Source: Naegleria gruberi
Taxonomy: Eukaryota
Length of the DNA stretch: 64,000 nucleotides
Assembly (NCBI GenBank): GCA_000004985.1
Contig: GG738913.1
Reading direction: 5' to 3' (one strand)
Shown one piece after another: positions 34,694 to 63,476 of the stretch. Position 1 is the first letter of the stretch. Each line of letters begins with the position of its first letter. The notes under the pieces are model-generated. The model made no database searches. It saw nothing but the letters and a program-made list of their open reading frames with translations, and was not told the origin of the DNA. A program made the translations under genes and the position numbers.

Positions 34694-37600
34694 TTATTTG
34701 AATAAGCGAACTAGTTGATAGATTATGAAAATAACCAACATAGCATGGAGAAGGAAATGCACAATCATTGATTTGCTTATCAATGATGACTGCTTTCGTT
34801 CTACAGATTCGAATTGGACGTGTAAAATTCTCATACTTGAAGCCATCAATCCAGCAAATGGAATCCAACTTGGTGCCATGAATGGATATCTTTCTTTCAC
34901 GCCACCAATTTGTTGTCTTTCCTCCATTTGGTATTGCTCTGAAACTAGCTTTGCCTTTCTGTGAAGGGAATGCACAAATGGTTCAGCATCGACAACAAAG
35001 GATTTGAATGGACCTCCCTTATTGAGAGATTTCACAGAGCTTGGTGTGAAGAAATACGGAGCAAAGCCTGACATTTCAAAAAGAATATTACTACCTGGTA
35101 GTTTCTTTTCCAACATTTCGAATATTTGAACAAGTTGTGACTTTTCAAAGTAGAGGAATAGACCTTCTGCAATTACCAAAACTGGAATTGACTCACCAAA
35201 TGATTTTCTTATGAAAGCAAGATCTGAAAATGTTGATTCTTCTAGAATAGATCCACTTTTACATTCGTATAGTGGTTGTTTCGTATTGTCATTATTGTTA
35301 ACAATATTAAAAACTTGTCTTCTCAATTCAATGACATTTGGCAAATCAATATCAATCCAATGCACCTTCTCATTCATTCCAAATAATCTTTCATATCTAG
35401 AACACAATCCACATCCCAAATTAACAATCATTACCTTTTCATGCTTAGCCAAACTCTTACTCACAAATTCTTGTGATTTCCTATCCAAGACAATAGTTCT
35501 CCCAACAATATTAGTTCTGGTAATTCTATCATTCTGAACATCAACAGAGAGATCTTCTGGTAAGTTTTGGAAGATTTTCACAGCAATTGGATCATATAAA
35601 ATTCCATCGCTTTCAAGAGATTCGAGAGCTCTGGAAACGAGTGGAATGTAGAGAGTTCTTTCGAGAGGTGTGAGGACAGAGTTCTTATCTTGAGCAATGT
35701 CTACGTCAAAAGGAGTTGGATTATGTGATGATTGTTGTGGAGAGCCAAGAATGGAATGTGAAATAAGATTCGAATAATGTTTGTCAAGTTGATGTCCACA
35801 ATTCTTAACAGTAATAATATTCAATCCATTTCCTGCAAACTTATTCCAGTTGTTAATTGTATTTCCTGTTACTAATTTATCAAATTCGCCTCTGAGAGCA
35901 ATAACTGGACAGTCAACTTGGTATTTTCCAAAAATGTCATCGTCATAACAATGATATTTCAATAAAAAGTCAAATTGGTGTTTGAAAAGTGGAATTTCCA
36001 TCAAATCTCTAATCTTCTTTGCCTTTTCATCCAAGTTCTCAATTCCTTCTGTTACATTAGGGAACAAGTCAAGATCGACAATTCCATAAATGATCGATTG
36101 ATCTCCCAAAGTTTTAAATTTCACATAAGAATCACCATGAAGCGAATTTCCAGGAGCATTTCCACTAACAATCAATTTTACAGGTTTCTTATTGAACTTG
36201 AATTGAATAAATCTTGTAAATTCAAGAGCAACCAAAGCACCCATGCTGTGTCCATAGATTGTAACCGTATTGGAATTAAATAGTTGATGGACACAATCCC
36301 AAACTTGCATGAAATGAGCAGTCCAATCAGAATTATTTCTCAAATAATCCAAATTAATCACATAAATGGAAAATTCTTCAAGATTTAAATCTCTAAAATC
36401 ATGAACTGTTCCACCAAGTGCTGGAAAACAGAGTAAAACATTCTCTGATGATCTTTCTTGGATAGTTTCTAATAACAAGTGCTTTTCTAATGAATTGGTT
36501 TGATTTGGACTATTAGATTGTTGTGTTAATTGTTGATTGGATGATTTTCCAGAATTGGAAATCATTTCAACAAGAGTAGAAACCGAAACTCCAGATAAGA
36601 GAGTCGAAACTGTAATACTTGATGAAAATTCTCTTGATAGAATATTTCTTATTTCTACACTCATGAGAGAATCAAGACCATAGTCAACAAGTGGTTTCTC
36701 CAGTTGAATTTCACTTTCGTCCATTCCAAAAACTTTGGATACAATATCTGAAACCTTTCTAACAATTCCATCAACGTTAGAATCTGTAGTTGTTGATTTT
36801 CCTTCAATATTTGATTCCTTTCTTTGACGACCAAATGTTACATGAGGTGAAAGTGAATCCTCAGGCATTTCAAATCCAAAGAAGGTCATTGCAGGAGGAA
36901 GATCCATCTCGTGTTCAATCAAATATTCGAAATGATCAAGTAAATCATGAACATGCATAGCTCCAACCCAGAAATATTCATCAACTTCTGCCTTAGTTGC
37001 ATATCCAGCTCCTGTAATCAAACTTAGACCTAAAGATTGTCCAGCCAATCCACAACTTCTTCTATAGCTACACAAAGATTCTAAGAAATAATTTCCACTA
37101 TTATAGTTTGATTGACCGAATGCTCCAACCAAAGAACTGAAAGAGCTCAACATTAAAAAAGTGGATAGATTGCAATTGAGCTTGATTGAACATTGGTGAA
37201 GGTTGAAACCTCCGAGAATCTTTGGTCTGGCAACAGTTTCGTACTTTTCTTTTGTCATCTTATTTGCAGCACAATCGGATAAAACCATTGCTGAATGGAC
37301 AATTCCTGTAATTGGGAATTTTTGATGGATTTCTTGCATTGTTTGATAAAGAGTTGAGTAATTGCAAATATCAGTAATGTAAACATCAATAGATGCATTA
37401 GGGTTATTCAGCATAATCTTGTCAATGATCAATTTTTCAGATTTGTTTGGCATTCTTCTTGTAAGAAGGGCAATGTTTGAGACTTTCATCTTTTCAACAA
37501 GCCATTCGCACATCTTTAATCCAATTCCACCCAATCCTCCACTAATAACCCAACAACCGTTATTCAATATCTTCTTTTGAGATGTCAAAGAATTATAAAT

Positions 37601-40600
37601 AACATTGGAATAAAAGTGAACAAATCTTCCACTTTCAGAATAAACAATTTCATCATGAGTATAAACAGATTCAAGGACATCATCAACAATTTCACCAATT
37701 GAGTTTTCTGAACATTTAGGTTGCATATCAATAACCTTTAACTTCTTTTGGAATATCTCAGTTTGAATTGATCTCAAACATCCAACAATAGAAGATTGAG
37801 AAATGTTACATTCCTGATTGTAACCAAAAACTGAACTAGTTAGAGCAACGAATTTACATCTGCCAGTATTGAACTTGAGTATCTTACAAATTGAGTACAT
37901 AGATTCCACACAATTGGAAACTGTTTCAAACTCGAAAGAGCTTAAAGAAAGTGGCCAACCGAAAATAATTCCACAGATATTCAAAGTTTGATTGAATATT
38001 GATTCGAAATGTTCAAAATCTGCAGGATTAATAACGAATCCAGAATCAAGTTGTTGGAATTTTTCACCTTGAATAATTTTGACAACTTTTACACCTCTAG
38101 ATTTCAATTCTTCACACAATAAATTTTCCTTTTGTGTTTCAGAAGAGAAGAACAACCATCTCTCAACATTTTTCTCTTTCTTCTTTGCTATAATGTAATT
38201 TGCAGTACCAATTGGCAACATGACATTTGAAGGGAAATCACAATCCAATAAAACTTGTTCCCACTCATTTCCTGATAGCAAAGCAGATTGCTTTCTGAAG
38301 GAATCCTTAAAATACCACCATCCCTTCAAAGTACCAACGAAAAAGTGTAAAAATTGAGCTCCAAGAGGATCAGACTCAACTAGGACTAATTGACCATTGG
38401 AAACCAACAAGCTTGAAATGAGTGAAAAGACGGATTTCAAATCTTGAGTAGCATGAACAACATTAGCAGCGATTACCAAATCAAACGAATCCTTTTCAAT
38501 GAATTCTGAAGAAACAAATGGCTTTTCAATATCTAATAAAGAAAATTCCATAAAATATTCGAATTGTGCAAACTTTTCCTTTGCCTTCACCAAAAACAAT
38601 GGTGAAATGTCTGTGAAAACATACTTCACATCTATATAATCTCTCAATGAATCAAGAATTGGTAAAATTTGTTTGGTTGTTCCTCCAAGTCCAGCTCCAA
38701 TTTCCAAAATTCTCAAAGTCTTCTTTTTACCATTCTTTGGAATGGAGTTCAAAATAAAATCAAACAATGGTTTAGTTTGATGAGAAACTTCATCATAATA
38801 ATCATTCAATACATGTTCTTTTCTTGAAAATAGGACAGAAACAGGATCTGCCTCACCAGTTAATAATTGCTTCATGTGAATTAAACTATTTTCCACCAAA
38901 TCGATCAGATTGGAATAAAGATCAATTCTTGGAAATTCTCTCAAGGATTTGATAATATTAAATCTATTAGGAAGATCACTAACTACTGTATAAGTATCTG
39001 AATCATATTGGACAAGATTCATTTGTAAAGCCAACTCAATAGTCAATTGAGCAAGTCTCTTCAAATGTTCTGGTTGAATCCTAGAATTCAAAACAGAAAG
39101 CTCGATAGTAGAACTTTCACATAACTCTTGGAATACATTCAAACAATATTCAACACAAACCTTGGTAACAAATCTATTAAGAGATTCGTGTTCGTTTGAG
39201 TATTCATTGAGTTTGAAATTGAGAATAAACTCTTGCAATGATTCCATAGAAGGAAGAATAGATTTAGAATAGATTGGTTGTGGTGCAAAGTTTGATGATA
39301 CAATAGAAGTTTCTTGAAGTTTCTTTTCTTTGGTTTCCAAAGGTGAAACTTTGAAACCATTGAAAGAAATAAATGGCTCATTAGATTCTCCCAAAACTTG
39401 TAAATCACAAGTAATTTCTTTTGTTTGAGCATTCTTCGAATATTTAACACATCTGGTGATGGTGTGTTTCGAATTGTTTGGTTTTCTATGTGGGATGATT
39501 GTAATTTCGTCTGTGGAAATTGGAAGATAGGTTGTATCCTCTGGCATTGAACAAATCATCATTTGGAAACATGAATCAAGCAATGCAGGATGCCATGTAC
39601 AATATCTTTCGTCATTTTCCAAAGCTTTTGGATGGGAAATTTGTGCCATCAAAACTTCTCTTGTTTCGTCATGTCCAACTTGGCTGTACAAATCCAATCC
39701 TTGGAAACAAGGTCCATAATTGAGGCCACATTTGGACAGATTGAAATAGATATTCTCCTTATGAATGTTTTGTGTTTTTTCATCAAGATTTTCTGTGAAA
39801 TTTCTGAAAATATCAAAGGCTTTCAATTCTCTGTTTGTGAAATTGATGGAATCACCAGAATTAGAAGAATCTAGAGTTTTGAAAGAACCAAAGGCATGTA
39901 AAGTCCAATCACAAGGTAGCTTATTTGATAACTTGGAAGGATCTTTGGAAATTTCTGAATAATTAATAGATAACAAGTCAACCTTCTTTTTGCTGAAAAT
40001 TCTAAACTCATTAGCATACAAATTCAAATGAACTTGAACAATTCTAGGCTCTTGTTGTAAAATCATTGGATTTACCACTTTGAAATTGACTAGACGAAGC
40101 TCTTCAACATTCTTGGACGAGTTATCAAGAATTGCTGCAGAACTAATCTCAACGAAACCAGAATATGGGAAGAATACTTCATTTTCAATCTTGTGATCTC
40201 TAATATACATTTGATCAGTGTTAGAACTAATATCAATAAGACTCTCATAGATAATATCTGGAGAATTTTCCATTGGATTGAATTTTCTGTTACCCAAAAG
40301 TGGATGATTAATAGTTTCGAATTGACCAATTCTCCATCTCAAAGATTCATAAGATTCTGACCAACAAGATTGTTTCTGGAAAGGATATTTAGGAATTCCA
40401 TCCAATATCTTACTATTCTCTCCATATCTATTAATTTGTTTCCAATCAAGTTTAGAATATCCATTCACAAACAATGAGGAGACAACTTGTAACAAACTCA
40501 TTTGTTCATCCTTCTTTCTAATCAATGTTGGAATTACAGAAATAGAATCTTCATTTCCTAATGAAGAAGACGAAATATCCTTAATGTATCCATTCAAAAC

Positions 40601-43184
40601 CGGATGGGAAGATATTTCAATAACATATTTGATTGAGTTTTTGTAAGTGTGAAAAATCTCTTCCATAGCTTGTGAAAACAAAACCTTCCCTCTGACATTA
40701 TTCCACCAATATTCTGGTGTTGACATTTCTTGGAGGTTTGACTTTCTTCCAGTGACAGTAGAGAAAACGGCTTGAATATTATCATTTGGTTTGGTTCCTC
40801 TTTCCTTTTTTGAGATTCTATTAGAAAGAACTTCTAATAACTCTTTCTTGATTACTTCCATATGGCTGGTATGGAATGCAGCTTCATTTCTCAAAAAGAC
40901 ACAGTTGACTCTTGAGTTTGGTTCATTTTCCACATACTTGGTGAGATCAAGTTGCAATTGTTTCAACACATGTTCTTCACCACCAACTACAACGGAGGAA
41001 TTACTATTTACAGATGCAATCTCAACAGTATTGTTAAATCCAAGAATATCCAAAATTGAGGCCAATTTGTCCAATCCTAAATTGATAGCCATCATTTTAC
41101 CTGTTTTAGAAAATTCTTTCAAGATGGTTGCACATTTGTTTTGCAATCTTGCTCTATGATAAATCAAGAATACAGCTTCCTCTAGAGTGAGGCATCCATG
41201 CACGTATGCAGCTGTCACTTCTCCAACTGAATGTCCAACAACAATTCGAGGAGTGACTCCATATGATTTCAATACTTCATAACAACCACATTGTACTGCA
41301 AAGATACATGGTTGAGCAATGTTGGTTGAGTAAATTCTGGTGTCCTTTTCTGTTCTTGTAGTCAACTCTTCTACAATTGACCACTTGTCATTGGTTGGCA
41401 TTATCTTTTGCATTTCTGAATCAATTCTTTCAACTGTGGCAGAGAAAACATTGTTGGTTTCCAATAATTGTCTTCCCATAGCAAACCATTGAGGTCCTTG
41501 TCCAGAGAAAACAAAGCAAATATCGGATTTTTCTTCTCTCTTGCTTGAGTTACCAATGCTAGTTGATTCATTAGATGAAAAATTGGAGGACAATTGGAGG
41601 AGCTTTTCAACGAGCTCATCTTTGTTGTTGTAAATGATAGAAGCTCTGTAGTCTCTGAATTGACTCTTCTTTTCACAATAGTTGAAAAGTAAATCATCTT
41701 GATTGCATTGAGCTGAAAACTCAGCAACGCTACTAGACATCATCTTGAGTGAGTATTCACTCTTGGCAGAAAGTGGAAGAATTCTAATACCTTCTGATAT
41801 GCTATTCTTTCTTTGATGTTCTAATTGCTCAACACTTTGCAAGATGCAATGAGCATTAGTACCACCCATACCAAAGGAATTAATTCCAATAATAACAGGA
41901 TTGATATTAGAAGGGATTTCTTCTTCTTGCATGACAACTCTAATTTGTTTCTTCTCAAACTCAATGTGAGGATTGAGTGTGCTCTCAGTGCAATGAATAC
42001 TCTTAGCTATCTTCCTATGTTTCATCATGAGAATAGCTTTGATAATACTTGCAATCCCACTTGTTGCCTCTGTGTGACCAATATTACTCTTGACAGAACC
42101 AATTGGTAACTTGTCAAGTTTGTGCTTTCTTCTTTCTCTTCCAAAGAATGAATCAAGAGCTTGAGTTTCAATCTTATCTCCAATAGTAGTTCCAGTTCCA
42201 TGACTTTCAACATAATAAACATGTTGTGGAGGAATGCCACTCTTGTTGTACACTTGTTCCAATAATTCAACTTGTCCTTCCAGAGAGGGCATTGTTATTC
42301 CACTCTTTCTTTCTCCATCGTGATTGACCCAAGTTGACATGATCAAAGCATGAACTCTTTCATGTTGTGAAGAATTCGCATGCTTGTATGTGTTGATGAT
42401 GAGATGATGAATCTAATTTCTTCAAAATTAATACAGCAACACCTTCAGATTTTCCATAACCATCAACATGTGAAGAGAAGGTTTTACATCTTCCATCTGG
42501 TGCTGCTGCTCCAATAAGCTTTTGAGATACAAATTCTTGTGGAATGTAGTTTAAATTAACTCCAGCAACAATGGCCATTTCGCATTCATCTCTCTGTAAA
42601 CTTTCACATGCACAATTGAGTGCTACCAAACTTCCTGAACACATGGTATCGAGAGTGAATGACGGGCCTCTCAAATCGAAATGATACGAAATCCTGGCAG
42701 AATTGTTAGCTGGTGAAGAGTTTATCAAACTGTACGAGTTGTAAGTTTGCATGTCATGCCAGCCTTTCATGGTGAGATAATCTTGGTTCATCACAGAACA
42801 AAACACACCAATGTTTCTTCCTCTGATTTCTTCCCATTTAATTCCAGCATCCTCCAAGGCAATGTAAACTTGTTGAAGAAGGAGACGATGTTGTGGATCC
42901 ATGGAGCATGCTTCCTTCTTGGAAATTTCAAAGAATTCAAAATCAAACTCATCTAATGGTTTCTCCAAGAAGTGAGCCCTGTTGTAGGTTTGCTTATTGT
43001 TGTGGAATCTTGATGATTGTCTTTCCTTTGGTATGGTTGAGCTGGTGTCACTACCGTCAAGAAGAACTTGCCAGAATGATTCAACATCCACTGCCTGTCC
43101 AGGGAACATACAACTCATTCCAATGATGCCCATTGGTGAGTTTTCAGCAGAGTTTGATGGAGTAGTAGAATTGATAGAAATCAT
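34694..43184 (-). CDS. iterative type I polyketide synthase, KS-AT-DH-cMT-KR-ACP-TE-(TcmP/LCM-type O-methyltransferase)-TM; KS domain frameshifted at ~42363..42390 (two ORFs 42360..43184 and 34694..42346)
   Basis: ATG at 43182-43184 (MISINS...IIGMSCMFPG). KS motifs TMCSGSLVAL, HGTGT and GGTNAH. AT GHSVGE. DH HPLLGNRKF. cMT LEIGAGLGGTT. KR GGLGGIGL. ACP GLDSLMSVE. TE GHSMGALVALEF. LCM/TcmP-family VNLGCGLCSRYERL. C-terminal helix IVHFLLHAMLVIFIIYQLV. No ER domain. Confidence 0.9.
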
Positions 43185-51418: not shown

Positions 51419-54400
51419 TTAAGCCAAGTTAAGTTGTCCAATCAATACAATACAAATCAACACTAAATATACCAATGAAATTGCAGTTGCTGATGCTTCA
51501 GACACACGTTGACTTTTGGATGGTGTCACATTTTTGCTTCCAGAAGTTTTTGGAGTAGTGATACTCTTGCTTGGTTGAGGAATTGAGCCACCAGAAGAAG
51601 TGGATGGTGTTGGAGTAACTGTCTGTTCACACAAACCATTAACCAATGATTCTCCTTGAGAACAAGTTAAGGAAACTTTTCTAATTCTATTGTTCGAATC
51701 ATCTGAAATGTATAATTCACCTACTGAGCTCACTGCCAAACCTGTTGGAAAGTTCAATTGAGCACTTGTTGGTAAAGACCCATCTCCGCTCAATCCTGCA
51801 ATTCCATTTCCAGCACTTGTGCTAATAGTTCCATTGACATTCAATTTACGAATTCTATGGTTATACGAATCAGCAATGAACAAATCACCAGTTGAGCTAA
51901 CAACTAGGCCACTTGGATAATTCAATTGATAAAGTGATGCATTATTTCCTTCACCATTATATCCAGCTGTTCCATTTCCAGCAATTGTTGTAATTATTCC
52001 ATTCAATGAGACCTTACGAATTCTATGATTATTAGTGTCAGAAATCAGCAATTCTCCATTGGAATTGACTGCTACATAGCTTGGATTATTTAATGTGGCA
52101 CTTGTTGCAAGACCACCATCTCCACTAAAACCTGCAACTCCACTTCCAGCCACAGTGCTAATATCACCATTGGTTGCAATCTTTCTAATTCTATGATTAT
52201 TCGAATCAGCAATGAAAATTTCACCACTTTTTGAGCTAATTGCAAATGATTGAGAATTCAAATAAGAGTTAACTGCAGAAGAGCCATCGCCCAAACCACC
52301 AGCAACTGTACTAATCTTTCCACTAGAAAGTTTACGAATTCTTGAATTGAAAGAATCAATAATGAAAACGTCACCGTTCGAATTGGAAGAAACTCCACTT
52401 GGATAATTGAAACATGTACTTGTGGCTGCCAATCCATCACCATTGAAACCAATCGCTCCACTTCCAGCAATGGTTGAAATGTATCCATTCGCAGCTACCT
52501 TTCTAACTCGTTGATTGTATTGGTCAGAAATATAAATTTCTCCAGAGTTTCCAATAGAAATGCTGAATGGGAAATTGAGCTTGGCATTGGTAGCTAATCC
52601 ATTATCTCCACTGAATCCAGAAGTTCCAGTTCCTGCAACAGTTGTAATGATACCAGAGGATGAAGAAACCTTTCGAATTCTATGATTACCAGAATCGGCA
52701 ATATAAATATCATTATTAGTCAAATTGACTGCTACTGCAAATGGAACGAACAATTGAGCATTAATGGCCAACCCATTATCTCCGCTAAATGTTGCCTTAT
52801 ATGCAACTGTTCCATTACCAGCAATTGTTGAAATATAACCACTAGTAGAAACTTTACGAATTCTATTATTACGAGTATCGGTGAAAATCAATTCACCATT
52901 TGAATTCATTGCAATTCCATTTGGATAATGGATTTTGGCAGATATGGCCAGCCCACCATCTCCACTGAATCCAGATTCTCCACTTCCTGCCACAGTTGAA
53001 ATGATACCACCAGTTGAAATCTTTCTAATTCTGTGGTTTTCAGAATCGGAAAAGTAAATTTCACCACTCGAGCTCACTACCACTCCTTTTGGATTATTCA
53101 ATTTGGCACTTGTAGCAGAGGAGCCATCTCCACTGTAGCCACTTGTGCCAGTTCCAGCAATTGTTGTAATGTAACCATTCGAAAGTTTACGAATCTTGTG
53201 ATTGGAAGAATCTGAAAAGTAAGAGTCACCATTAGAAGAGATGAAAATAGAGTTTGGATTATGTAATCTTTCAGTGATTGCTAACCCATCGCCACTGTCA
53301 GCTCCAATAGCACCAGTTCCTGCTACAGCTGTCAAACTTGATTTGATTTTTGACAAATACGAACCAAGATACATGACATATACTTCATTATTATAATAAC
53401 TAACTGCAGAACCCAAAGGAGTTACTGAACTAAGAGTGGAAATTACATTAGTTGACAAATCAACTCTTCTAACTTTTCCATTATCAGTAAATAAAAGATT
53501 ATTTCCATAAATAATAGGATTTCCATTTGGAGAAACAAATGATTTGCTTGCTTGAACATCCTCTCCAAAACTTGAGGTACCAGCAAATGTTGAAATCACC
53601 CCACTTGCAGAAATCTTTCTAATTCTATGATTATACGAATCTGAAATGAAAATTTCACCTACAGAGTTGACCACAATTCCAGAAGGCAACCACAATTGAG
53701 CATTAACGGCCAAACCACCATCTCCACTCAATCCAACAGTTCCTGTTCCTGCAATTGTAATAATGGTACCATTTGTCAAAATCTTTCTAATACGATTGTT
53801 AACAGAATCTGAAATGAAAATTTCACCATTCGAATTGACTGAAATTCCACTTGGATAATTCAATTGAGCATTCTTTGCCAAGATGGAATCTCCATTAAAA
53901 CCAGCAGTTCCAGTTCCTGCAACTGTAGTGACAATACCACTATTCGAAATCTTTCTAATTCGATGATTTCTTGAATCTGCTACAAATAGTTCACCATTCG
54001 AATAGAATGCTGCTCTTGGTGCATTGAATTTGGCATTTGTGGCCTGTCCATTATCACCACTGTATCCAGCAGCTCCAGTTCCTGCAATAGTTGTGATATT
54101 TCCAATGGAGGAAACCTTTCGAATAACATTATTAGAAGTATCGACAATAATAACTTCACCACTTGAGGAATTAAGAGCTAAACCGTATGGAGAGTTTAAA
54201 AGCGCATTCGTAGCAAGACCCCCATCACCACTATAACCATAGGATGAGGCAGTTCCAGCAATGGTTGAGATTTTTCCATTTGTAGAAACCTTTCGAATAA
54301 CATGATTGGAGGTATCAGCAATGAAAGTTTCTCCCAAAGAATTAACAATTACACCATAAGGAAAGTTAATTTCGCTCTGTGTAGCCAATGCACCATCTCC

Positions 54401-54709
54401 ACTAAATGAAGAAGTACCAACGCCTGCAAAAGTTGAAACATCACTAGACGAAACCTTTCTAATACGCTGATTAAACGTATCAGCAATAAGAATTTCACTA
54501 TTCAAGCCTAATGCTATCCCATACGGATATCTCAAGAGAGCATTCCCTGTCATTCCATCACCAATTTTACTTCCACCTCCAATCAATGTTGAAATTTTGA
54601 CAGTTGGCAAGGAAGTTGAATGGACATGTGGAAAATTCATCATCACAACGATGAATGTAATGAGCAACCATATGGTAACGAGAATTTTCAATGGTTTGCG
54701 TGAAATCAT
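51419..54709 (-). CDS. secreted, GPI-anchored NHL-repeat protein (>=14 NHL repeats)
   Basis: ATG at 54707-54709 and a signal peptide. A reiterated ~50-aa unit ...G.GDG..A..A.LN.P.G.A..S.G...I.D..NHRIRK(V/I)S.NG.I.T.AG... (NHL/YD-type beta-propeller blades). S/T/P-rich stalk and hydrophobic tail LVYLVLICIVLIGQLNLA. Confidence 0.85.
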   Translation of the reverse strand: MISRKPLKILVTIWLLITFIVVMMNFPHVHSTSLPTVKISTLIGGGSKIGDGMTGNALLRYPYGIALGLNSEILIADTFNQRIRKVSSSDVSTFAGVGTSSFSGDGALATQSEINFPYGVIVNSLGETFIADTSNHVIRKVSTNGKISTIAGTASSYGYSGDGGLATNALLNSPYGLALNSSSGEVIIVDTSNNVIRKVSSIGNITTIAGTGAAGYSGDNGQATNAKFNAPRAAFYSNGELFVADSRNHRIRKISNSGIVTTVAGTGTAGFNGDSILAKNAQLNYPSGISVNSNGEIFISDSVNNRIRKILTNGTIITIAGTGTVGLSGDGGLAVNAQLWLPSGIVVNSVGEIFISDSYNHRIRKISASGVISTFAGTSSFGEDVQASKSFVSPNGNPIIYGNNLLFTDNGKVRRVDLSTNVISTLSSVTPLGSAVSYYNNEVYVMYLGSYLSKIKSSLTAVAGTGAIGADSGDGLAITERLHNPNSIFISSNGDSYFSDSSNHKIRKLSNGYITTIAGTGTSGYSGDGSSATSAKLNNPKGVVVSSSGEIYFSDSENHRIRKISTGGIISTVAGSGESGFSGDGGLAISAKIHYPNGIAMNSNGELIFTDTRNNRIRKVSTSGYISTIAGNGTVAYKATFSGDNGLAINAQLFVPFAVAVNLTNNDIYIADSGNHRIRKVSSSSGIITTVAGTGTSGFSGDNGLATNAKLNFPFSISIGNSGEIYISDQYNQRVRKVAANGYISTIAGSGAIGFNGDGLAATSTCFNYPSGVSSNSNGDVFIIDSFNSRIRKLSSGKISTVAGGLGDGSSAVNSYLNSQSFAISSKSGEIFIADSNNHRIRKIATNGDISTVAGSGVAGFSGDGGLATSATLNNPSYVAVNSNGELLISDTNNHRIRKVSLNGIITTIAGNGTAGYNGEGNNASLYQLNYPSGLVVSSTGDLFIADSYNHRIRKLNVNGTISTSAGNGIAGLSGDGSLPTSAQLNFPTGLAVSSVGELYISDDSNNRIRKVSLTCSQGESLVNGLCEQTVTPTPSTSSGGSIPQPSKSITTPKTSGSKNVTPSKSQRVSEASATAISLVYLVLICIVLIGQLNLA

Positions 54710-54907: not shown

Positions 54908-55957
54908 ATGGCAAATTGTAACAATGTTTCCCACCTCAACAGGTCAATCCTGGTGACAATTCTTCTATCCTCCCTTCTGTTCACATGTTTCGTCTCACTT
55001 TCCCACTCAACCATAACCAAGACGAAACTCTACGGTTTAAACTTTGCAGGTGCAGAATACGGATCAATGCCAGGTCGTTACGGCTACGATTATATCTATC
55101 CATCTGCCTCTGATATTAGTTTATATGTTGCCACAATGAATTTGAATGTAATTCGTCTTCCTTTCAAATGGGATAGACTTCAACCGAAACATGGTCAACC
55201 ATTAGATTCTTTGGAATTAGCAAGAATAGACGCAGTTGTTTCAGTATGTGCTACTCATGGGGTGTCTGTTCTATTGGACCCTCATAATTATGGATATTCT
55301 GTGAATGGATTGATTGGCACGTCAGATGAGCCAACTGAAAATTTCACAGATTTTTGGATTCGTCTAGCTCAGCATTATTTAGGATATGATAATGTGATTT
55401 TTGGAATTATGAATGAACCGCATACACATACACCACTTCAATGGGCAGATATTGCTCAAACAACTTTGAATGCTATTAGGTCAACTGGTGCTACTCAATT
55501 GGTTCTTGTTCCTGGAACTTTTTATACTGGAGCTCATTCTTGGACATCTAATGTTCTTGGACAATCAAATGCAGAAGCATTGAAGAATATTAAGGATTCT
55601 GCCAATAATTTCATGTTTGAAATGCATCAATATTTAGACAGTGACAATTCAGGAACTCATTCGACATGTGTCAGCTCAACAATTGGTTCGACAAGATTGA
55701 AAACTACTACTGATTGGTTACGTCAAAATGGATTTAAGGCATTTTTAGGTGAATTTGGAGCTTCTGATGATACAGTTTGCATGCAAGCTCTTTATGACAT
55801 TTTGCAATTTATGGGAAATAATACTGACGTTTGGCATGGATGGACTTATTGGAATGCTTCTCCATGGAGTACAACTTATATTTATGCTGCTTATCCCCCT
55901 GATGAGAATCAACATCCTCAAGTTTCAATCTTGAAAGAAGCAATGGGAGTAGTTTAA
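54908..55957 (+). CDS. glycoside hydrolase family 5 endoglucanase (cellulase), secreted
   Basis: Signal peptide. IRLPFKWDRLQP. Acid/base in GIMNEPH. Nucleophile FLGEFGAS. YLDSDNSGTH. GH5 subfamily-2-like spacing. Confidence 0.9.
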   Translation: MANCNNVSHLNRSILVTILLSSLLFTCFVSLSHSTITKTKLYGLNFAGAEYGSMPGRYGYDYIYPSASDISLYVATMNLNVIRLPFKWDRLQPKHGQPLDSLELARIDAVVSVCATHGVSVLLDPHNYGYSVNGLIGTSDEPTENFTDFWIRLAQHYLGYDNVIFGIMNEPHTHTPLQWADIAQTTLNAIRSTGATQLVLVPGTFYTGAHSWTSNVLGQSNAEALKNIKDSANNFMFEMHQYLDSDNSGTHSTCVSSTIGSTRLKTTTDWLRQNGFKAFLGEFGASDDTVCMQALYDILQFMGNNTDVWHGWTYWNASPWSTTYIYAAYPPDENQHPQVSILKEAMGVV

Positions 55958-56109: not shown

Positions 56110-57402
56110 TTACAAGAGTAAAACTGCAATCATGACAAATAAAGTCATAACAGAAATGACAGATCTAACTGCAGAGCTACCTCTTGAAGTTGTTGCAATG
56201 ACCTTATCAGTATATTGAACAGAGTATTCCTTTCTGTCCATTTCAAGAGTCCATCCCTTATCGATTTCAGCCTTACCAGCTTCAACAATCCATGGCTTTA
56301 AGACATAGCTTCCTTCAGTTGGTGAGTTTTGAATCTTGACAGACATGGAGAGAGTACCAGTACCAGGAGCAACACTCTTTTGAATTGCCTTACCAAACCA
56401 AGAATAATCTGGTAATCTCAAAAAGTCAACTACAATATCCACATTGACATTGGCAGAATAATCAACATCAACTGTAACAGTTTGACTATTCAATGGAATT
56501 TTAACTGGTGGAGTCTTAATACGAATGGAATTACCAACCAATGGTGCATTATTATTATTGGTTGATCCAGAATTTGAACCAGTTGATGGAGCGGGTGTAG
56601 GAGTAACTGGGTTACCTGTAGATGTAATTTGAGCATCCCAACATGAGGTATATGGAGCACTTCCAGCATTGAATACCCATCTCCATTGGAAAGCATAACG
56701 ACCCTCAGGAGTGTTAGCTGGAATTGTGAAACAATTAGTACACAATGCCTTATCCATATTTTCACAGAATTTTGGACAATTTTGGAATCCTTTACCACCA
56801 CCATTTTCCAAAGTATTTGGAGCAACGTTATTTCCCCAATCTTGCAATAATTTCCAATCATTAGCACCTGGATCACTGGTTGGATTCAAACTAGAGTAGT
56901 AAATCTTGTTTCCATTATCTGGAATGTATTGGTTGGTGCATGAAGCAGCAACGTGATTCTTGGCTGGATATGCAAGACAAACCTTTTGTCCTGGTCTGTA
57001 TGTGGCCATTGGATATGATGATCTGTAAAAAAATCATGTGGTCAACCAGGACATGTTAAAATTGCAGAGAAACTTACGTATAGAAAGATTGATAGTTTCC
57101 ATTGGTAAGACCATATTTACAACTAGTATCTTGGTGATTGTATCCAGTATCTCCACCGAAAGCGCTGTTAATAGCTATTAGAAAGTTGAAGAAATAAATA
57201 TTCGAAATGTAAATATATTCGAATTAAATGAACTTTACGTACCAGCATGTGCAGACCAATTTCTTGGACGTGCTCTACATTTAGAAGCACTGTAATATTG
57301 ACCGTTTTCTTCAGTATAATCAGTGCAGTCAATCCATGAGTGAGCATAGACAGCAGACAGACACAAGCTCAACACGAATAATGAAAGAATAACTTTGTGC
57401 AT
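56110..57402 (-). CDS. secreted protein with His at the predicted mature N-terminus, LPMO-like candidate, with S/T/P linker and GPI-anchor-like tail; exons 57243..57402, 57078..57174, 56110..57022
   Basis: ATG at 57400-57402 gives MHKVILSLFVLSLCLSAVYA|HSWIDCTDY..., so His is the first residue after the signal peptidase site. Introns GTACGT..AATAG at 57175..57242 (68 nt) and GTAAGT..TTACAG at 57023..57077 (55 nt) join in frame (total 1170 nt). C-terminal TPTPAPS linker and hydrophobic tail VMTLFVMIAVLLL. Confidence 0.65.
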
Positions 57403-57944
57403 TTTTTTCCTTGATGATTCGTATTAAAAAGAAGCAATCGATGGATTATAATGTCACACCTTCATAATTAAATCGGGTGGCTACTTGACATCTTGTGCTC
57501 ATCAACATACCACCCGCAAGAATCCTTGCCAAACATTGTTTCAGTGTGCTTATTGATATTCACTTTTCAATTATTACAATAAAATATTTGAATTGATTTG
57601 GAAGAGACATTGTTAATTATTGTAGTTGATATAATTGATATTGAACGAAAATTATAAAGATGAAACCTGTTATCTGTTAATATCTTTGAACGGTTGGATA
57701 TTTTGGCCCATGTTTGGGTTCTCATTGTTAAATTCTAACAAACGTCTGGATAAAATAGTTGTGTGGCTAAACCCTTCGGAAATTTCAATGCTGATTTCGT
57801 GATTTGAAAGCACTTAATCTAGAGTTGAATATCCAGAAATTAATAATGGAATGGTATGTAGATTCCATTTATTCCATTGTATAAGATTTACAGTAGTAGC
57901 AGATGATGAAGGTGTGAAATCTTATTGTGTGTTTAATCCATCAT

Positions 57945-59305: not shown

Positions 59306-60379
59306 TTATTCGTAAATATCAATTTTCTTATCTACAAGTGTGTAATACAAATAAGGTCCATCCAAAGCTAGTGAATTTGGTTTACTTCCCAAAACTTTAA
59401 TTTCCTTTACTGATCTTTCTACATCAATTATGAGTAAGCCAAGTGCAGTTGAGCATAGGATCTTATTCGAATCTCTATCACAGGTCAAATACAAGCATTC
59501 GGTATTATCAAAGCTCTTGATGCATCTCCAATCTCTTCTTCTGTCCTTCTCCAAAATAAGTATTTTATCGAATAGAGAAACAACTAAATGTCTGTCATTG
59601 AGAAAATCAACCGATTGTAAAATTCCATTAAAACTAAACTCAATCATGGTTAATGGTTCTCCTGTAGAAGCTTCCAAAATTGCAATACAATCACTTTCTC
59701 TATCACAAACATATAGAGTATTCTCAGAGAAATGATACTTTTCATTGAATGATTTAGATCCATACGAAACAGCTGTAGAATAGGGACTATCAAAATTATC
59801 TTGTACCCAAACTTGACATTCACGTATATTTGCATCTGGTGCACAAAGTTTTTCCAAATCGTATTTAATTAATTTTCCATAACTTCCATAAGCAATATAT
59901 AAGGCATCCGTTCTACTATCACAATATTCTAATTCCAAGGCAAGTGAATCTCCTTCTCGTTCAGTTTCTACACATGAACAGAATTCCAAAGAATTTACAT
60001 CAAAAATTAGTAATCTTTCCAATATATTATCCAAGACAATGATAGCTTGGTGAGTATGTGAAATTTTCACATCATATGGATTAGTAAATAGACAATCACC
60101 AATAATTCCTTCAACTTCTATAGATCCATCAATCGAATCGACACAATTAAACTGATACTTGAATGTACTCAATTTCCTCTTCTCCCAATGTCTTTTCAAT
60201 TTCACCATGGAATTTAATAATTCCTCCCTTTCATTAAAATTCCACAAATTAACTTTTACACAATCTTCATTAACTTTCTGATCAGCATTCTTCTTGATTT
60301 TTTTCTGTGATGATTCTCCACCCGATGATGAAACTCGTTTTCCTGATGATGAAATTTTCACCCCACCAATTTTTTTCAT
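59306..60379 (-). CDS. beta-propeller-like repeat protein, tandem paralog Y
   Basis: ATG at 60377-60379. Shares blocks with 60538..61453 (ALYIAYGSYGKLIKYDLEKL vs NIILVGSEKMLYKYDLKKIL). Repeated hydrophobic-blade pattern. Confidence 0.5.
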   Translation of the reverse strand: MKKIGGVKISSSGKRVSSSGGESSQKKIKKNADQKVNEDCVKVNLWNFNEREELLNSMVKLKRHWEKRKLSTFKYQFNCVDSIDGSIEVEGIIGDCLFTNPYDVKISHTHQAIIVLDNILERLLIFDVNSLEFCSCVETEREGDSLALELEYCDSRTDALYIAYGSYGKLIKYDLEKLCAPDANIRECQVWVQDNFDSPYSTAVSYGSKSFNEKYHFSENTLYVCDRESDCIAILEASTGEPLTMIEFSFNGILQSVDFLNDRHLVVSLFDKILILEKDRRRDWRCIKSFDNTECLYLTCDRDSNKILCSTALGLLIIDVERSVKEIKVLGSKPNSLALDGPYLYYTLVDKKIDIYE

Positions 60380-60537: not shown

Positions 60538-61453
60538 TTAATAAAGGACAACTAGATTTCTCTTACCAATGTTTGAAATTATCATTCTTCCATTCCTTTC
60601 ATTAATGACCAGGCAACGATTATTACTAAATTCTTCAAACTTATGTTGTGAAATAGGTTCTAAATCTTTTGTAAACACAAAAATGGCACCAATTGCATCA
60701 CTCACATATACCTTTTCTGATTTTTCTTCATAAAATATTGAAAAACATCGACTAATTTCCAGTTCACTTGTTGGTCTTACTTCTTTGTGGGCATTCCAAT
60801 ATCCATTCTCGTCTTTCCTAAATAGTCCAATAAAATTATTTCCACAAGCTATCAAATCACCGTTTGGTAAGCACTTTACATCTGCTAAATTTTTTATAAT
60901 CTAAAATACTCGTAATGTATTCACCACTTTTTGAATCAAAAATTTGAATAGTATCATTATAGTCAACCACAAATAATTGATTGTCCATTGAGTCAAATCC
61001 CACAAGAAGTGAGCATGTAGTTTGCTGTTCCCAAATAAGAGCTGTGTAAAGGGATTCATTGGTTAGTTTTTCATCCAATATTTTCTTTAAATCATACTTG
61101 TAGAGCATCTTTTCTGAACCTACAAGAATGATGTTTAATTCAGAAGGTGTTCTTTCCAAATTCACAAAATCCAATTCATTTCCAAAAAGAAGAGAATACA
61201 CCACATTATACGAATCCAAATCCAAAAATTTAACTCCATTTACAACAACAACCAACAATAAATTGTATTCTCTAACAATTACGAAACTAAACGAACAACA
61301 ACCCAAATCAATTACCCTTTCAATAGCAAATCGACCAGAAAATTCCACCATTGTAGGTTCTTTAAATTTTCCTTTTAAATAATTTTGTAATGTTGAATTG
61401 GCTTCCGGTGTATCAATCAAGTCAAACACCACACAACACTCATCTTGTGCCAT
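60538..61453 (-). CDS. beta-propeller-like repeat protein, tandem paralog X (two ORFs 60857..61453 and 60538..60855 separated by a frameshift or a 25-nt GT..AG segment)
   Basis: ATG at 61451-61453. The frame changes at ~60870-60895. Removing GTATTTTAGATTATAAAAAATTTAG restores the frame (...YITS|T|DVKCLPNGDLIACG...). Confidence 0.4.
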
Positions 61454-61922: not shown

Positions 61923-63137
61923 CTAAATCACCATTGCCTGGCAAAGTTTTGGAGGCAATCTTGATACTGTCTCGCTATCATAAAAGAGTTTTTTTCTATT
62001 TTGAATTCCAAATTTTAACAACTCTTTGAAAAAACTTTCAAAAAATTCCAAATCAATATAATTTTCACATATTGAAACAATGTCAAAATAATTATCAATT
62101 GTAATTCTAAAGTTATTCTTGCAATATATTACTAAATATTTAACTTCATATTTCATTGCCATATCTAGGAGGCTAATAATCTTTTCAGATTTATTGAGAT
62201 CAGCAAATGTTGATCCACAGTCAAACATAGCGTTAAATAATGAACTTGTTGAGCTTAAAATCGTTTTGTGGCAGTACAAGTAATTATTTTCATCCATTTG
62301 AATTTTTAAATCACTTGTTTTCTTATCATTGTATAATTGATTAATTTTCAAAGGTTCTATTTCAATTATTTCATTTAAAATTATTGGATTTGGTTGAGAT
62401 AATACAATTTTAGAGAAAATATTAACACAATATCTAGTCATGATTGGAAGAGTTGGTAAATATTTCGAACCTTCTTCGGTTTTCGTTTGAATGGCAGCAA
62501 ATTCAACACAGTAATTATGCAAATATTCAAGAATATAATTTTTTAAGTGCAATTCATTTGTGCATTGAGATAAATAAAGTTCAATTTCTTCCCATTTCTT
62601 GGAAAGATTTTGAATGGTCAGAGATTGAATAAATTGGAATACACACAACTTTTTCAATTCTATAAATTCATTATTCTGGAATAATCCTAAAATGAATAAT
62701 ACATTCAAAATTTCGTCATCATTAAATTTCAATTTAATCTCATTATAAAGTTGCGAGTCAATTAGGTTTTGAATAATTTGCTGTTGAGTTGAATTCAGAG
62801 ATGAAATTAGTGGCTCGTTCTTTAAAATCAATTTAGAAAATAATGGTGATAATATTTCAATGAGAGGAATGAATGCATAAATTGAGGTTTTGAATAGTAA
62901 ATCTCTTGAATGTTTTTTTAACTTGATTTCAAGTTTTTGTGGATATTTAAATCCACCAATATGAGGATTTTTTGATATATCAAAAGTAGAATCACCTCCA
63001 TGTCCTCGTTTTCCATTTCCAGCAATTGTTATAATATTTCCATTCTTCAATATTTTTCTAATTTTATGATTGTTAAAGTCTGTCGGCAATGTATACTTCA
63101 TTATTTGTTGCTGAAACGAAAACGCATTGTGGATCAT
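61923..63137 (-). CDS. protein with a single N-terminal NHL repeat and a C-terminal BTB/POZ domain
   Basis: ATG at 63135-63137 (the ORF track starts at a TTG). NHKIRKILKNGNIITIAGNGKRGHGGD matches one NHL blade. C-terminal YLYCHKTILSSTSSLFNAMFDCG...ISLLDMAMKYEVKYL is BTB. Confidence 0.6.
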   Translation of the reverse strand: MIHNAFSFQQQIMKYTLPTDFNNHKIRKILKNGNIITIAGNGKRGHGGDSTFDISKNPHIGGFKYPQKLEIKLKKHSRDLLFKTSIYAFIPLIEILSPLFSKLILKNEPLISSLNSTQQQIIQNLIDSQLYNEIKLKFNDDEILNVLFILGLFQNNEFIELKKLCVFQFIQSLTIQNLSKKWEEIELYLSQCTNELHLKNYILEYLHNYCVEFAAIQTKTEEGSKYLPTLPIMTRYCVNIFSKIVLSQPNPIILNEIIEIEPLKINQLYNDKKTSDLKIQMDENNYLYCHKTILSSTSSLFNAMFDCGSTFADLNKSEKIISLLDMAMKYEVKYLVIYCKNNFRITIDNYFDIVSICENYIDLEFFESFFKELLKFGIQNRKKLFYDSETVSRLPPKLCQAMVI

Positions 63138-63476
63138 CAAGTTGTGAGGTTGTCATGGATTTGTGTGTTTCGCTTATTTTTTTAGAAATTGTTTATTATT
63201 AACATGCAAAGTTCTTGTTTGGAGATGAACCATAATACTAGATTGAAAATTTTAAATTGGCAGTGTGGATTTATTTCCACAAAAGTAATGATTAACTAAT
63301 ACATATTGGAGCAAAATAGCCACAAACTTGTGCTTCAAAAAGTTTTGCTTTCCAGCAAGTAAACTATTAATAAATCTCATAACTTTTTGCTCTGCACTAT
63401 TAATACCATTGGTGAACGTGTTTAGAAAAAAATCAAAACAAAAAAAAACAATTAAATAACCCACAACATATCATAA

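Follow-up and report, generated by a model that had tools for sequence, protein, structure and literature searches.

NHL β-propellers are found in several well-described settings that differ in cellular compartment and in the domains that accompany the propeller. Bacterial multi-NHL surface proteins from Acidobacteriota, Bacteroidota, and Actinomycetota are extracellular and carry long tandem arrays of blades with the shared consensus GDGG.AT.A.L..P.GVAVD..GN.YIAD..N.RIRKV...G.I.TVAG, combined with Ig-like, PKD, RICIN, or T9SS domains. The teneurins and the bacterial teneurin-like proteins (9ifo, 6fb3) are likewise extracellular and contain a six-bladed NHL propeller. In SOQ1, where the NHL domain is lumenal, and in NHLRC2, a single propeller is fused to thioredoxin-like domains, and the compartments are different again. 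TRIM-NHL proteins are cytosolic, with a RING, a B-box, and a coiled coil placed N-terminal to a single NHL propeller. Outside the NHL family, several six-bladed propellers are strung on one extracellular chain in LRP4, LRP6, and LRP2/megalin, which belong to another repeat family (YWTD/LDL-receptor class B) and have EGF modules between the propellers, a transmembrane helix, and a cytoplasmic signaling tail. BTB-Kelch adaptors of Cul3, finally, join a BTB domain to a six-bladed β-propeller and have no signal peptide.

Here, we compare with these systems two genes from a 64,000-nucleotide stretch of DNA of the free-living amoeba Naegleria gruberi, referred to as the window. At a probability of roughly 60% for the statement as a whole, we propose that NAEGRDRAFT_53411 encodes a GPI-anchored triple-NHL receptor of the cell surface, that its blade array is stable, and that the neighboring BTB gene is a relic of separate origin. 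The protein belongs to the known kind of NHL propeller and leaves the view of these propellers unchanged.

The gene lies on the minus strand (51419..54709) and has a complete coding sequence without introns, for 1,096 amino acids plus stop, as had been noted in an earlier reading of the window made from the sequence only. It matches N. gruberi NAEGRDRAFT_53411 (XP_002670673.1, D2VZ49) at 100%, and its public name is "predicted protein". The public model XP_002670673.1 is 1,074 residues long and starts at Met23, which cuts off the signal peptide. The earliest in-frame ATG is at 54709, with an upstream stop 8 codons before it, and gene calling on an independent metagenome contig arrived at the same start. 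The gene is native, with an RSCU correlation of 0.93 with neighboring genes and a GC3 of 0.225. Contamination or a recent transfer was rejected on the grounds of this codon usage and of the eukaryotic neighbors, which are Sir2, GH5 cellulase, kinase, eEF1A-like, MetE, and PKS genes. The ORFs 59306..60379 and 60538..61453 contain no NHL detectable by the blade HMM or Pfam (E <= 1), and a PDB sequence search with the former returned no NHL match; the two are weak paralogues of one another only. A literature search for Naegleria and NHL found no relevant paper.

NAEGRDRAFT_53411 matches Pfam NHL (PF01436) over 11 stretches with an E-value of 3.8e-95 and 308 bits (cut-off 20), and TEN_NHL with 6.7e-94 and 315 bits; in this HMM check, which had been suggested together with YVTN and SMP-30 as other propeller families, NHL came out best, and neither of the other two did. 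Matches in the PDB by sequence are also NHL domains, led by the bacterial teneurin-like protein 9ifo (1.4e-83) and including SOQ1, teneurins, NHLRC2, and TRIM71. The motif ...D..N[HNQ]RIRK[VIL]..G.I.T.AG occurs in 16 canonical copies and one degenerate copy (VRRV), an HMM built from the protein's own blades gives 18 envelopes, including a very weak one, and the AF2 model (mean pLDDT 82) contains 18 four-strand units. The total is thus 18 blades of ~56 residues each, 16 canonical and two degenerate, so that the earlier estimate of at least 14 was right as a lower bound and an undercount by both blade HMM and AF2. Some Pfam matches suggest a secreted six-bladed propeller hydrolase or lyase (SMP-30/gluconolactonase, Vgb lyase, strictosidine-synthase-like, or PAL-like), namely Vgb_lyase (62.7 bits, cut-off 50), SGL (39.5 bits), and Phytase-like (36 bits), and many bacterial homologues are automatically named "sugar lactone lactonase YvrE". 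We nevertheless regard an enzyme as improbable, because these matches span ~80–100 residues of profiles with 246–290 positions (Vgb_lyase positions 56–132 of 290; SGL 86–176 of 246), which amounts to similarity over a blade or two among members of one clan, and because the NHL and TEN_NHL scores are five times higher. Moreover, His accounts for 1.2% of all residues and, as read from the blade sequences, lies mostly within the structural NH[RK]IRK motif, and the top structural matches are non-enzymatic NHL domains.

Scores and predicted secondary structure support a 6+6+6 division of the blades into three closed six-bladed propellers. Propeller 1 (aa 36–377; 53579..54604, minus strand) would comprise blades 1–6, corresponding to HMM envelopes 1–6, together with an additional N-terminal strand (KISTLIGGG); AF2 predicts six four-strand units with pLDDT mostly >90. 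Propeller 2 (aa 388–692; 52634..53548, minus strand) would hold blades 7–12. Its first two blades (53276..53548, minus strand) are degenerate, with the motifs VRRV and LSKIK and 17–40% identity to the remaining blades. When aa 368–700 were modeled alone, six four-strand units were again obtained (pTM 0.82), and the isolated propeller superposed in Foldseek on the six-bladed SOQ1 NHL domain 7djj with a TMq of 0.81 and an rmsd of 2.8 Å. At the level of models, blades 7 and 8 have therefore lost the sequence motif and kept the fold. Propeller 3 (aa 693–1015; 51665..52633, minus strand) would contain blades 13–18, the last of which has no closing G.I.T.AG strand. A region of ~340 residues in the full-length model superposes on the complete six-bladed NHL domains 7djj and 6g7w (Foldseek TMt 0.83, rmsd 2.1–2.3 Å), and an alignment places the three propeller segments in register with one another and with the six-blade domain of P0123. 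The geometry between propellers in the full-length AF2 model is to be read with its pTM of 0.49.

The propellers are preceded by a predicted signal peptide (aa 1–31; 54617..54709, minus strand) and followed by a predicted membrane anchor, both assigned by sequence rules. In the leader, a basic n-region (MISRKPLK) precedes a 16-residue hydrophobic core with a Kyte-Doolittle peak of 2.96 (aa 6–23), after which comes a V-H-S|T cleavage motif that, judged by eye, obeys the -3/-1 rule. AF2 models it as a helix (residues 7–24) followed by a low-confidence segment, and an analogous leader, ending in THVST, is present in the N. lovaniensis homologue P0094. Directly after propeller 3, a short β-hairpin (51623..51664, minus strand; CSQGESLVNGLC; AF2 strands 1020–1023 and 1026–1029) contains Cys1016 and Cys1027, which probably form a disulfide; both are conserved in a second strain, where Cys766 is replaced by Ser. 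The hairpin leads into a disordered Ser/Thr/Pro-rich stalk (aa 1030–1070; 51500..51622, minus strand), which is probably O-glycosylated: Ser, Thr, and Pro account for 56% of aa 1037–1070, and AF2 gives pLDDT <50 for aa 1033–1076.

A classical GPI signal consists of small residues at the omega, omega+1, and omega+2 positions, a short polar spacer, and a hydrophobic end of 15–20 residues with no cytoplasmic residues after it. The C-terminal end of NAEGRDRAFT_53411 (aa 1071–1096; 51422..51499, minus strand) looks like such a signal, with S1070 as the candidate omega site, followed by E and A, the short spacer SATA, and the hydrophobic AISLVYLVLICIVLIGQLNLA. The hydrophobic stretch (18–21 residues, Kyte-Doolittle up to 3.2) reaches the final residue and has no charged tail. 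It could instead remain in the bilayer as the helix of a single-pass type I membrane protein with practically no cytoplasmic tail. AF2 predicts a 23-residue helix (1073–1095) that could span a membrane, a short spacer separates the candidate omega site from the hydrophobic stretch, and P0094, which has EGF repeats, is anchored by a true transmembrane helix that continues into a cytoplasmic tail, so that the GPI-type end is not universal within this protein family. Nonetheless, the type I arrangement seems unlikely to us, given that the hydrophobic stretch ends at the last residue without basic stop-transfer residues and that the small residues directly upstream (S, A, S, A, T, A) have the classical GPI layout. 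A literature search for Naegleria and GPI yielded a passing remark on GPI-anchored proteins only.

The signal peptide, the Ser/Thr/Pro stalk, and the GPI-type hydrophobic end listed in the sequence-only reading are hence all present as sequence features, and its description of a secreted multi-propeller NHL protein is supported by Pfam, the PDB search, and the structural matches. In the GPI-anchored arrangement that we favor, a cleavable signal peptide would direct the chain into the secretory pathway, and the mature protein would fold, according to the models, into three consecutive six-bladed NHL β-propellers with 18 blades. The two-Cys hairpin and the ~40-residue disordered stalk, the latter probably O-glycosylated, would space the propellers from the membrane, while the C-terminal hydrophobic segment would most likely be exchanged for a GPI anchor, an assignment for which sequence rules are the basis. 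By analogy with bacterial surface NHL proteins, PknD, and teneurins, the faces of the propellers may bind ligands, in which case the protein would serve as a receptor for adhesion or recognition and not as an enzyme. A surface role in binding or adhesion is a reasonable proposal on this analogy.

Among the described systems, the bacterial multi-NHL proteins show 32–50% identity to the protein among the alignments listed and 39–55% per propeller. However, they are anchored or sorted by bacterial modules and combined with different partner domains, whereas NAEGRDRAFT_53411 has native codons, a predicted signal peptide of eukaryotic type, a stalk resembling mucin, and a C-terminal end of the GPI type. 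Teneurins and teneurin-like proteins provide the best PDB sequence match, but they have one propeller where this protein has three, and a type II orientation instead of the predicted signal peptide and anchor at the C-terminus; their YD/RHS shell, FN-plug, TTR domain, toxin domain, and EGF repeats are absent here. As regards the teneurin "superfold", which is the YD/RHS shell with its FN-plug (PMC13018210), Pfam gives NHL-clan families only, and the 18 blades fill the span from signal peptide to stalk. Among structures of single domains, the NHL domains of SOQ1 and NHLRC2 match best (TM 0.81–0.83, rmsd 2.1–2.8 Å), at only 19–26% identity. YWTD receptors of the LRP type appear among the Foldseek matches to the full-length model at 10–13% identity. 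Nor is the protein a TRIM-NHL member, since it has none of their N-terminal domains according to Pfam, and instead combines a predicted signal peptide with three propellers.

The sequence-only reading had taken the array to be nearly periodic at the DNA level, with a repeat of ~150 nt, and capable of expanding or contracting. Autocorrelation instead gives a period of 168 nt, or 56 residues (z = 5.7), and no lag-6 signal in the DNA of the array. Near-periodicity was an overstatement: nucleotide identity between blades averages 57% and peaks at 70%, blades 5 and 6 being the most alike pair, exact internal repeats reach at most 23 nt, and Tandem Repeats Finder reports a sole array of 2.3 copies (53610..54003, 73% matches), which covers blades 4–6. 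A recent triplication of a whole propeller was rejected, as blades at equivalent positions in different propellers do not resemble each other more than other blades do (0.51 vs 0.50, p = 0.27). The proposed comparison of blade copy number was made with one second, independent strain, which is 98% identical (nucleotide divergence 1.5%, dN/dS 0.18); it has the same 18 blades and differs in length by a single 3-nt indel only. The array is therefore ancient, diverged, and under purifying selection, and its stability follows from the age and divergence of the blades and from the retention of all 18 units in the second strain. A dynamic tandem repeat, with blade number differing between strains, would fit the periodicity and the one short array found by Tandem Repeats Finder. 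It is nonetheless highly improbable in view of the low identity between blades, the shortness of their exact repeats, the lack of any indication of recent duplication in either blade position or lag structure, and the unchanged number of units.

About 7 kb away and on the same strand lies the BTB gene NAEGRDRAFT_74363 (XP_002670676.1; 392 residues; 61923..63101, minus strand), a degenerate member of a Naegleria NHL-BTB family. The ORF 61923..63140 has a Pfam BTB match (1.1e-6) and one NHL-like blade; the fusion of a single blade to a BTB domain described in the sequence-only reading thus holds as far as these two elements are concerned, but the blade is not intact. It is a relic (62988..63156, minus strand) split by a 1-nt frameshift, with its first half MTTSQLDDPQCVFVSATNNEVYIAD in a frame of its own (ATG 63156, stop 63073) and its second half ...NHKIRKILKNGNIITIAGNGKRGHGGDSTFD in the frame of the main ORF. 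The part of the BTB domain recognized by Pfam (aa 267–307; 62220..62342, minus strand) corresponds to profile positions 2–42 of 110, and alignment with paralogues shows that ~31 residues of the BTB core are gone after it. The linker and BTB part are ~50–55% identical to P0122–P0126 over 73–95% of the query. Profile searches found members of the family in N. gruberi and N. lovaniensis, including full-length paralogues elsewhere in both. Like BTB-Kelch proteins, the family combines a BTB domain with a six-bladed β-propeller and has no signal peptide; unlike them, it has NHL in place of Kelch, with the propeller N-terminal to the BTB domain, and no BACK domain was detected in it. The window's copy differs further in its one broken blade and truncated BTB domain.

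Exon shuffling or partial duplication from NAEGRDRAFT_53411 had been put forward as the source of this blade. The proximity and common strand of the two genes would agree with that, as would blastn matches of 59–66 nt at 71–78% to several blades of the large gene, plus shorter fragments. The nucleotide matches anticipated from that idea were thus obtained, but at the protein level the relic blade is only 38–52% identical to any NAEGRDRAFT_53411 blade, compared with 62–67% to the last blade of N. gruberi P0122, P0123, and P0126, in an alignment that runs through the junction between blade and linker. Together with the full-length NHL-BTB paralogues elsewhere in the two species, this leaves a copied blade with almost no credence. 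The first half of the relic resembles the N-terminus of the paralogues (MSSLATSAQLNRPNNVFVSSNNEVYIAD), and the second half with the linker resembles their last blade; the relic is a remnant of the family's own N-terminal propeller. Between the BTB gene and the next gene upstream, where a plus-strand ORF starts at 63416, the blade HMM and ORF frames reveal no further blades. The reduction from a six-blade array to one blade is a putative internal collapse or, alternatively, a 5' truncation. Within one protein of the family, blades are 72–79% identical, and blade numbers are 6, about 5, 3, and, in the window, 1. NAEGRDRAFT_74363 is a decayed copy from this Naegleria-specific, cytosolic family and is unrelated in origin to NAEGRDRAFT_53411.

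Compatible with these conclusions is an ancient horizontal transfer of the NHL propeller of both families from bacteria, followed by diversification, which we consider possible but on balance somewhat doubtful. Best matches to single propellers are 39–55% identical, those with a named source being bacterial, and many carry bacterial partner domains (T9SS sorting, RICIN, PKD); in Foldseek, identity is 38% to a Bacillus teneurin-like NHL domain and only 19–27% to plant SOQ1, human NHLRC2, and animal teneurins, with 20–26% to SOQ1 and NHLRC2 in the search with the full-length model. However, any two arrays of consensus-like repeats will show inflated identity, bacteria and metagenomes dominate the databases searched, and the codon usage of NAEGRDRAFT_53411 is fully native. 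Still more speculatively, and with little probability, an acquired bacterial-type NHL propeller might have been put to use on both sides of the membrane, outside as the GPI-anchored triple propeller and inside as NHL-BTB proteins with changing blade number. If this dual use were true, NHL-BTB members with short arrays might rebuild a propeller by BTB-mediated oligomerization; designed "Pizza" fragments reportedly do so by oligomerizing.

NAEGRDRAFT_53411 shows that a periodic-looking repeat array can be old and stable, real variation in blade number being found in the separate cytosolic NHL-BTB family. A Naegleria "predicted protein" thereby gains a structural and topological annotation, and the corrected start codon restores its signal peptide. 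For a bacterivorous amoeba with few well-characterized surface proteins, it is a candidate molecule of adhesion or recognition at the cell surface.

The ORF at 51419..54709 (minus strand) encodes 1,096 aa and is 100% identical to Naegleria gruberi XP_002670673.1 (NAEGRDRAFT_53411, D2VZ49; 'predicted protein'). The public model, 1,074 aa in length, begins at Met23, downstream of an in-frame ATG at 54709 that has A-rich surroundings and a stop codon eight codons before it. Starting at this earlier ATG restores 22 N-terminal codons absent from the public model (54644..54709, minus strand) and adds MISRKPLKILVTIWLLITFIVV, which, as read from its residues, completes a predicted signal peptide of textbook form, with a basic n-region ahead of a hydrophobic core of 16 residues and the motif V-H-S|T. 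The gene call on an independent metagenome contig has the identical start, and the leader of P0094, the N. lovaniensis homologue, is analogous. Because the model start removes the predicted signal peptide, automated localisation predictions for XP_002670673 would be wrong. A gene for a secreted GH5 cellulase with its own signal peptide (54908..55957, plus strand; Pfam 3.2e-56) is divergently transcribed from the NHL gene across 198 intergenic nt; a second strain shows 99% conservation over the 246 nt that precede the NHL start, the intergenic region included.

Pfam assigns the repeats to NHL (3.8e-95) and TEN_NHL (6.7e-94). Since the matches to SGL, Vgb_lyase, Phytase-like, and Str_synth are partial and at blade level only, the repeat name proposed by the sequence-only reading stands. 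That reading was largely correct, and its count of at least 14 blades can be refined to 18, arranged in three predicted propellers. Scanning for the motif identifies 16 canonical blades and a degenerate one (VRRV), an HMM built from the protein's own blades returns 18 envelopes (one very weak), and the full-length AlphaFold2 model (30-sequence alignment, mean pLDDT 82) contains 18 four-strand units, including the two at aa 388-478 that are poor in motif. A ~340-residue stretch of this model superposes on the complete six-bladed NHL domains of SOQ1 (7djj) and NHLRC2 (6g7w) with a TM score of 0.83 and an rmsd of 2.1-2.3 Å. When only the middle six units are modelled, the pTM is 0.82 and the TMq against 7djj is 0.81, and the three propeller segments mutually align in register. 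An extra strand resembling G.I.T.AG opens the chain and the last blade lacks that strand, consistent with an integral number of closed rings. Model scores and alignment thus support a predicted grouping into three six-bladed propellers; the full-model pTM, which concerns the inter-propeller geometry, is 0.49.

Blade 18 is followed by a two-cysteine hairpin (C1016, C1027), a disordered stalk (pLDDT <50) that is 56% Ser/Thr/Pro, the segment SEASAT, and 21 hydrophobic residues reaching the terminus. A small-residue segment followed by a hydrophobic stretch to the terminus is the classical layout of GPI signals, and judged by this rule, SEASAT and the hydrophobic end would constitute a GPI-type signal with S1070 as the candidate omega site. 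As this assessment follows sequence rules only, the chief alternative to the GPI anchor is a transmembrane anchor that lacks a tail. The mature protein carries nine N-x-S/T sequons. A stalk and GPI-like tail are also found in a multi-exon gene at 56110..57410 (minus strand), whose main ORF (56110..57009) matches DUF7492 weakly and includes both a Ser/Thr/Pro linker and a hydrophobic end at its C-terminus. Exon 1 of this gene encodes a signal peptide (MHKVILSLFVLSLCLSAVYA) with His immediately after it (HSWIDC...), an arrangement reminiscent of the N-terminal histidine brace in LPMO/X325-type copper proteins.

The blade array had been read as nearly periodic at ~150 nt and able to expand or contract, neither of which is borne out. 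DNA autocorrelation peaks at 168 nt (56 aa), blades share on average 45% identity in protein and 57% in DNA (DNA maximum 70%), the longest exact repeat is 23 nt, and TRF reports a single 2.3-copy array over blades 4-6 with 73% matches. Neither autocorrelation nor blade comparisons within the gene show any sign of recent blade or whole-propeller duplication. In the second strain, represented by a metagenome contig (L001; ENA ERZ929261, PRJEB11402, 3,642 bp), the number of units is unchanged at 18, with 1.49% nucleotide difference and one 3-nt indel; the dN/dS of 0.18 between the two alleles indicates purifying selection. The contig allele (98% identical, 1,097 aa) has Ser at Cys766 and regains a Gly in blade 1 (SSSGDV), so a close relative of N. 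gruberi is present in the PRJEB11402 metagenome.

The ORF at 61923..63140 (minus strand; NAEGRDRAFT_74363, 392-aa model), which joins a single NHL blade to a BTB domain, had been suspected to derive from the large NHL gene by exon shuffling or partial duplication, an origin that the comparisons below do not support. Its relatives lie elsewhere: P0122 (699 aa, five blades found) and P0123 (679 aa, six blades found) have an N-terminal NHL array, then a linker, then the BTB domain, an order that is the reverse of that in BTB-Kelch proteins. Blades of these paralogues share 62-67% identity with the single blade, in an alignment that continues across the blade-to-linker junction (GDSPFDI..YPHIG); identity to the blades of the large NHL protein is just 38-52%, with main DNA matches of 59-66 nt at 71-78%. 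The single blade is broken by a frame shift of one nucleotide between MTTSQLDDPQCVFVSATNNEVYIAD (ATG at 63156) and NHKIRKILKNGNIITIAG...; its first half resembles the paralogues' N-terminus and the second their last blade. This arrangement suggests that a six-blade array may have collapsed to one hybrid unit before a frameshift. The BTB core has also lost ~31 residues. Further NHL-BTB proteins from both N. gruberi and N. lovaniensis were recovered by a profile search, and the family includes P0122, P0123, P0126, P0247, and P0248, proteins of these two species encoded outside the window. Within close paralogues, blades are on average 72-79% identical (maximum 82-98%). Since blade counts vary among these genes (6, about 5, 3, and, in the BTB gene studied here, 1, although some may reflect imperfect gene models), blade-number change is a property of this cytosolic family and not of the secreted NHL protein.

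Contamination and recent transfer of the NHL gene are excluded because its codon usage is native (RSCU against neighbouring genes, r = 0.93; GC3 0.225) and the flanking genes are eukaryotic. The blades are of the bacterial consensus type. In single-propeller searches, the best matches have 39-55% identity, and those with a named source are bacterial, many with bacterial partner domains. Foldseek alignments give 38% identity to the NHL domain of a Bacillus teneurin-like protein (described in PMC13018210), compared with just 19-27% for SOQ1, NHLRC2, and animal teneurins. Ancient horizontal acquisition of the propeller is possible, although the similarities may equally reflect repeat consensus effects and database bias.

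Elsewhere in the window, a large type I polyketide synthase (34694..43184, minus strand) has a 2,550-aa ORF with KS (C-terminal part), AT, DH, methyltransferase, KR, ACP, thioesterase, and C-terminal LCM-type methyltransferase domains; the KS N-terminus may lie in the adjacent ORF 42360..43184. Two adjacent minus-strand genes without family assignment, 59306..60379 and 60538..61453, are weak paralogues (24% identity, E = 2e-4), the latter being broken into two ORFs (60857..61453 and 60538..60855).

Our searches found no literature on Naegleria NHL proteins, and Pfam, PDB-sequence, and structure searches gave no full-domain enzyme match in the large NHL protein. Given the lack of such a match and the analogy to other extracellular NHL propellers, its most likely predicted role lies in adhesion or recognition, directed at prey, substrate, or other cells, in which a probably glycosylated, membrane-tethered triple propeller would bind ligands via the propeller faces.
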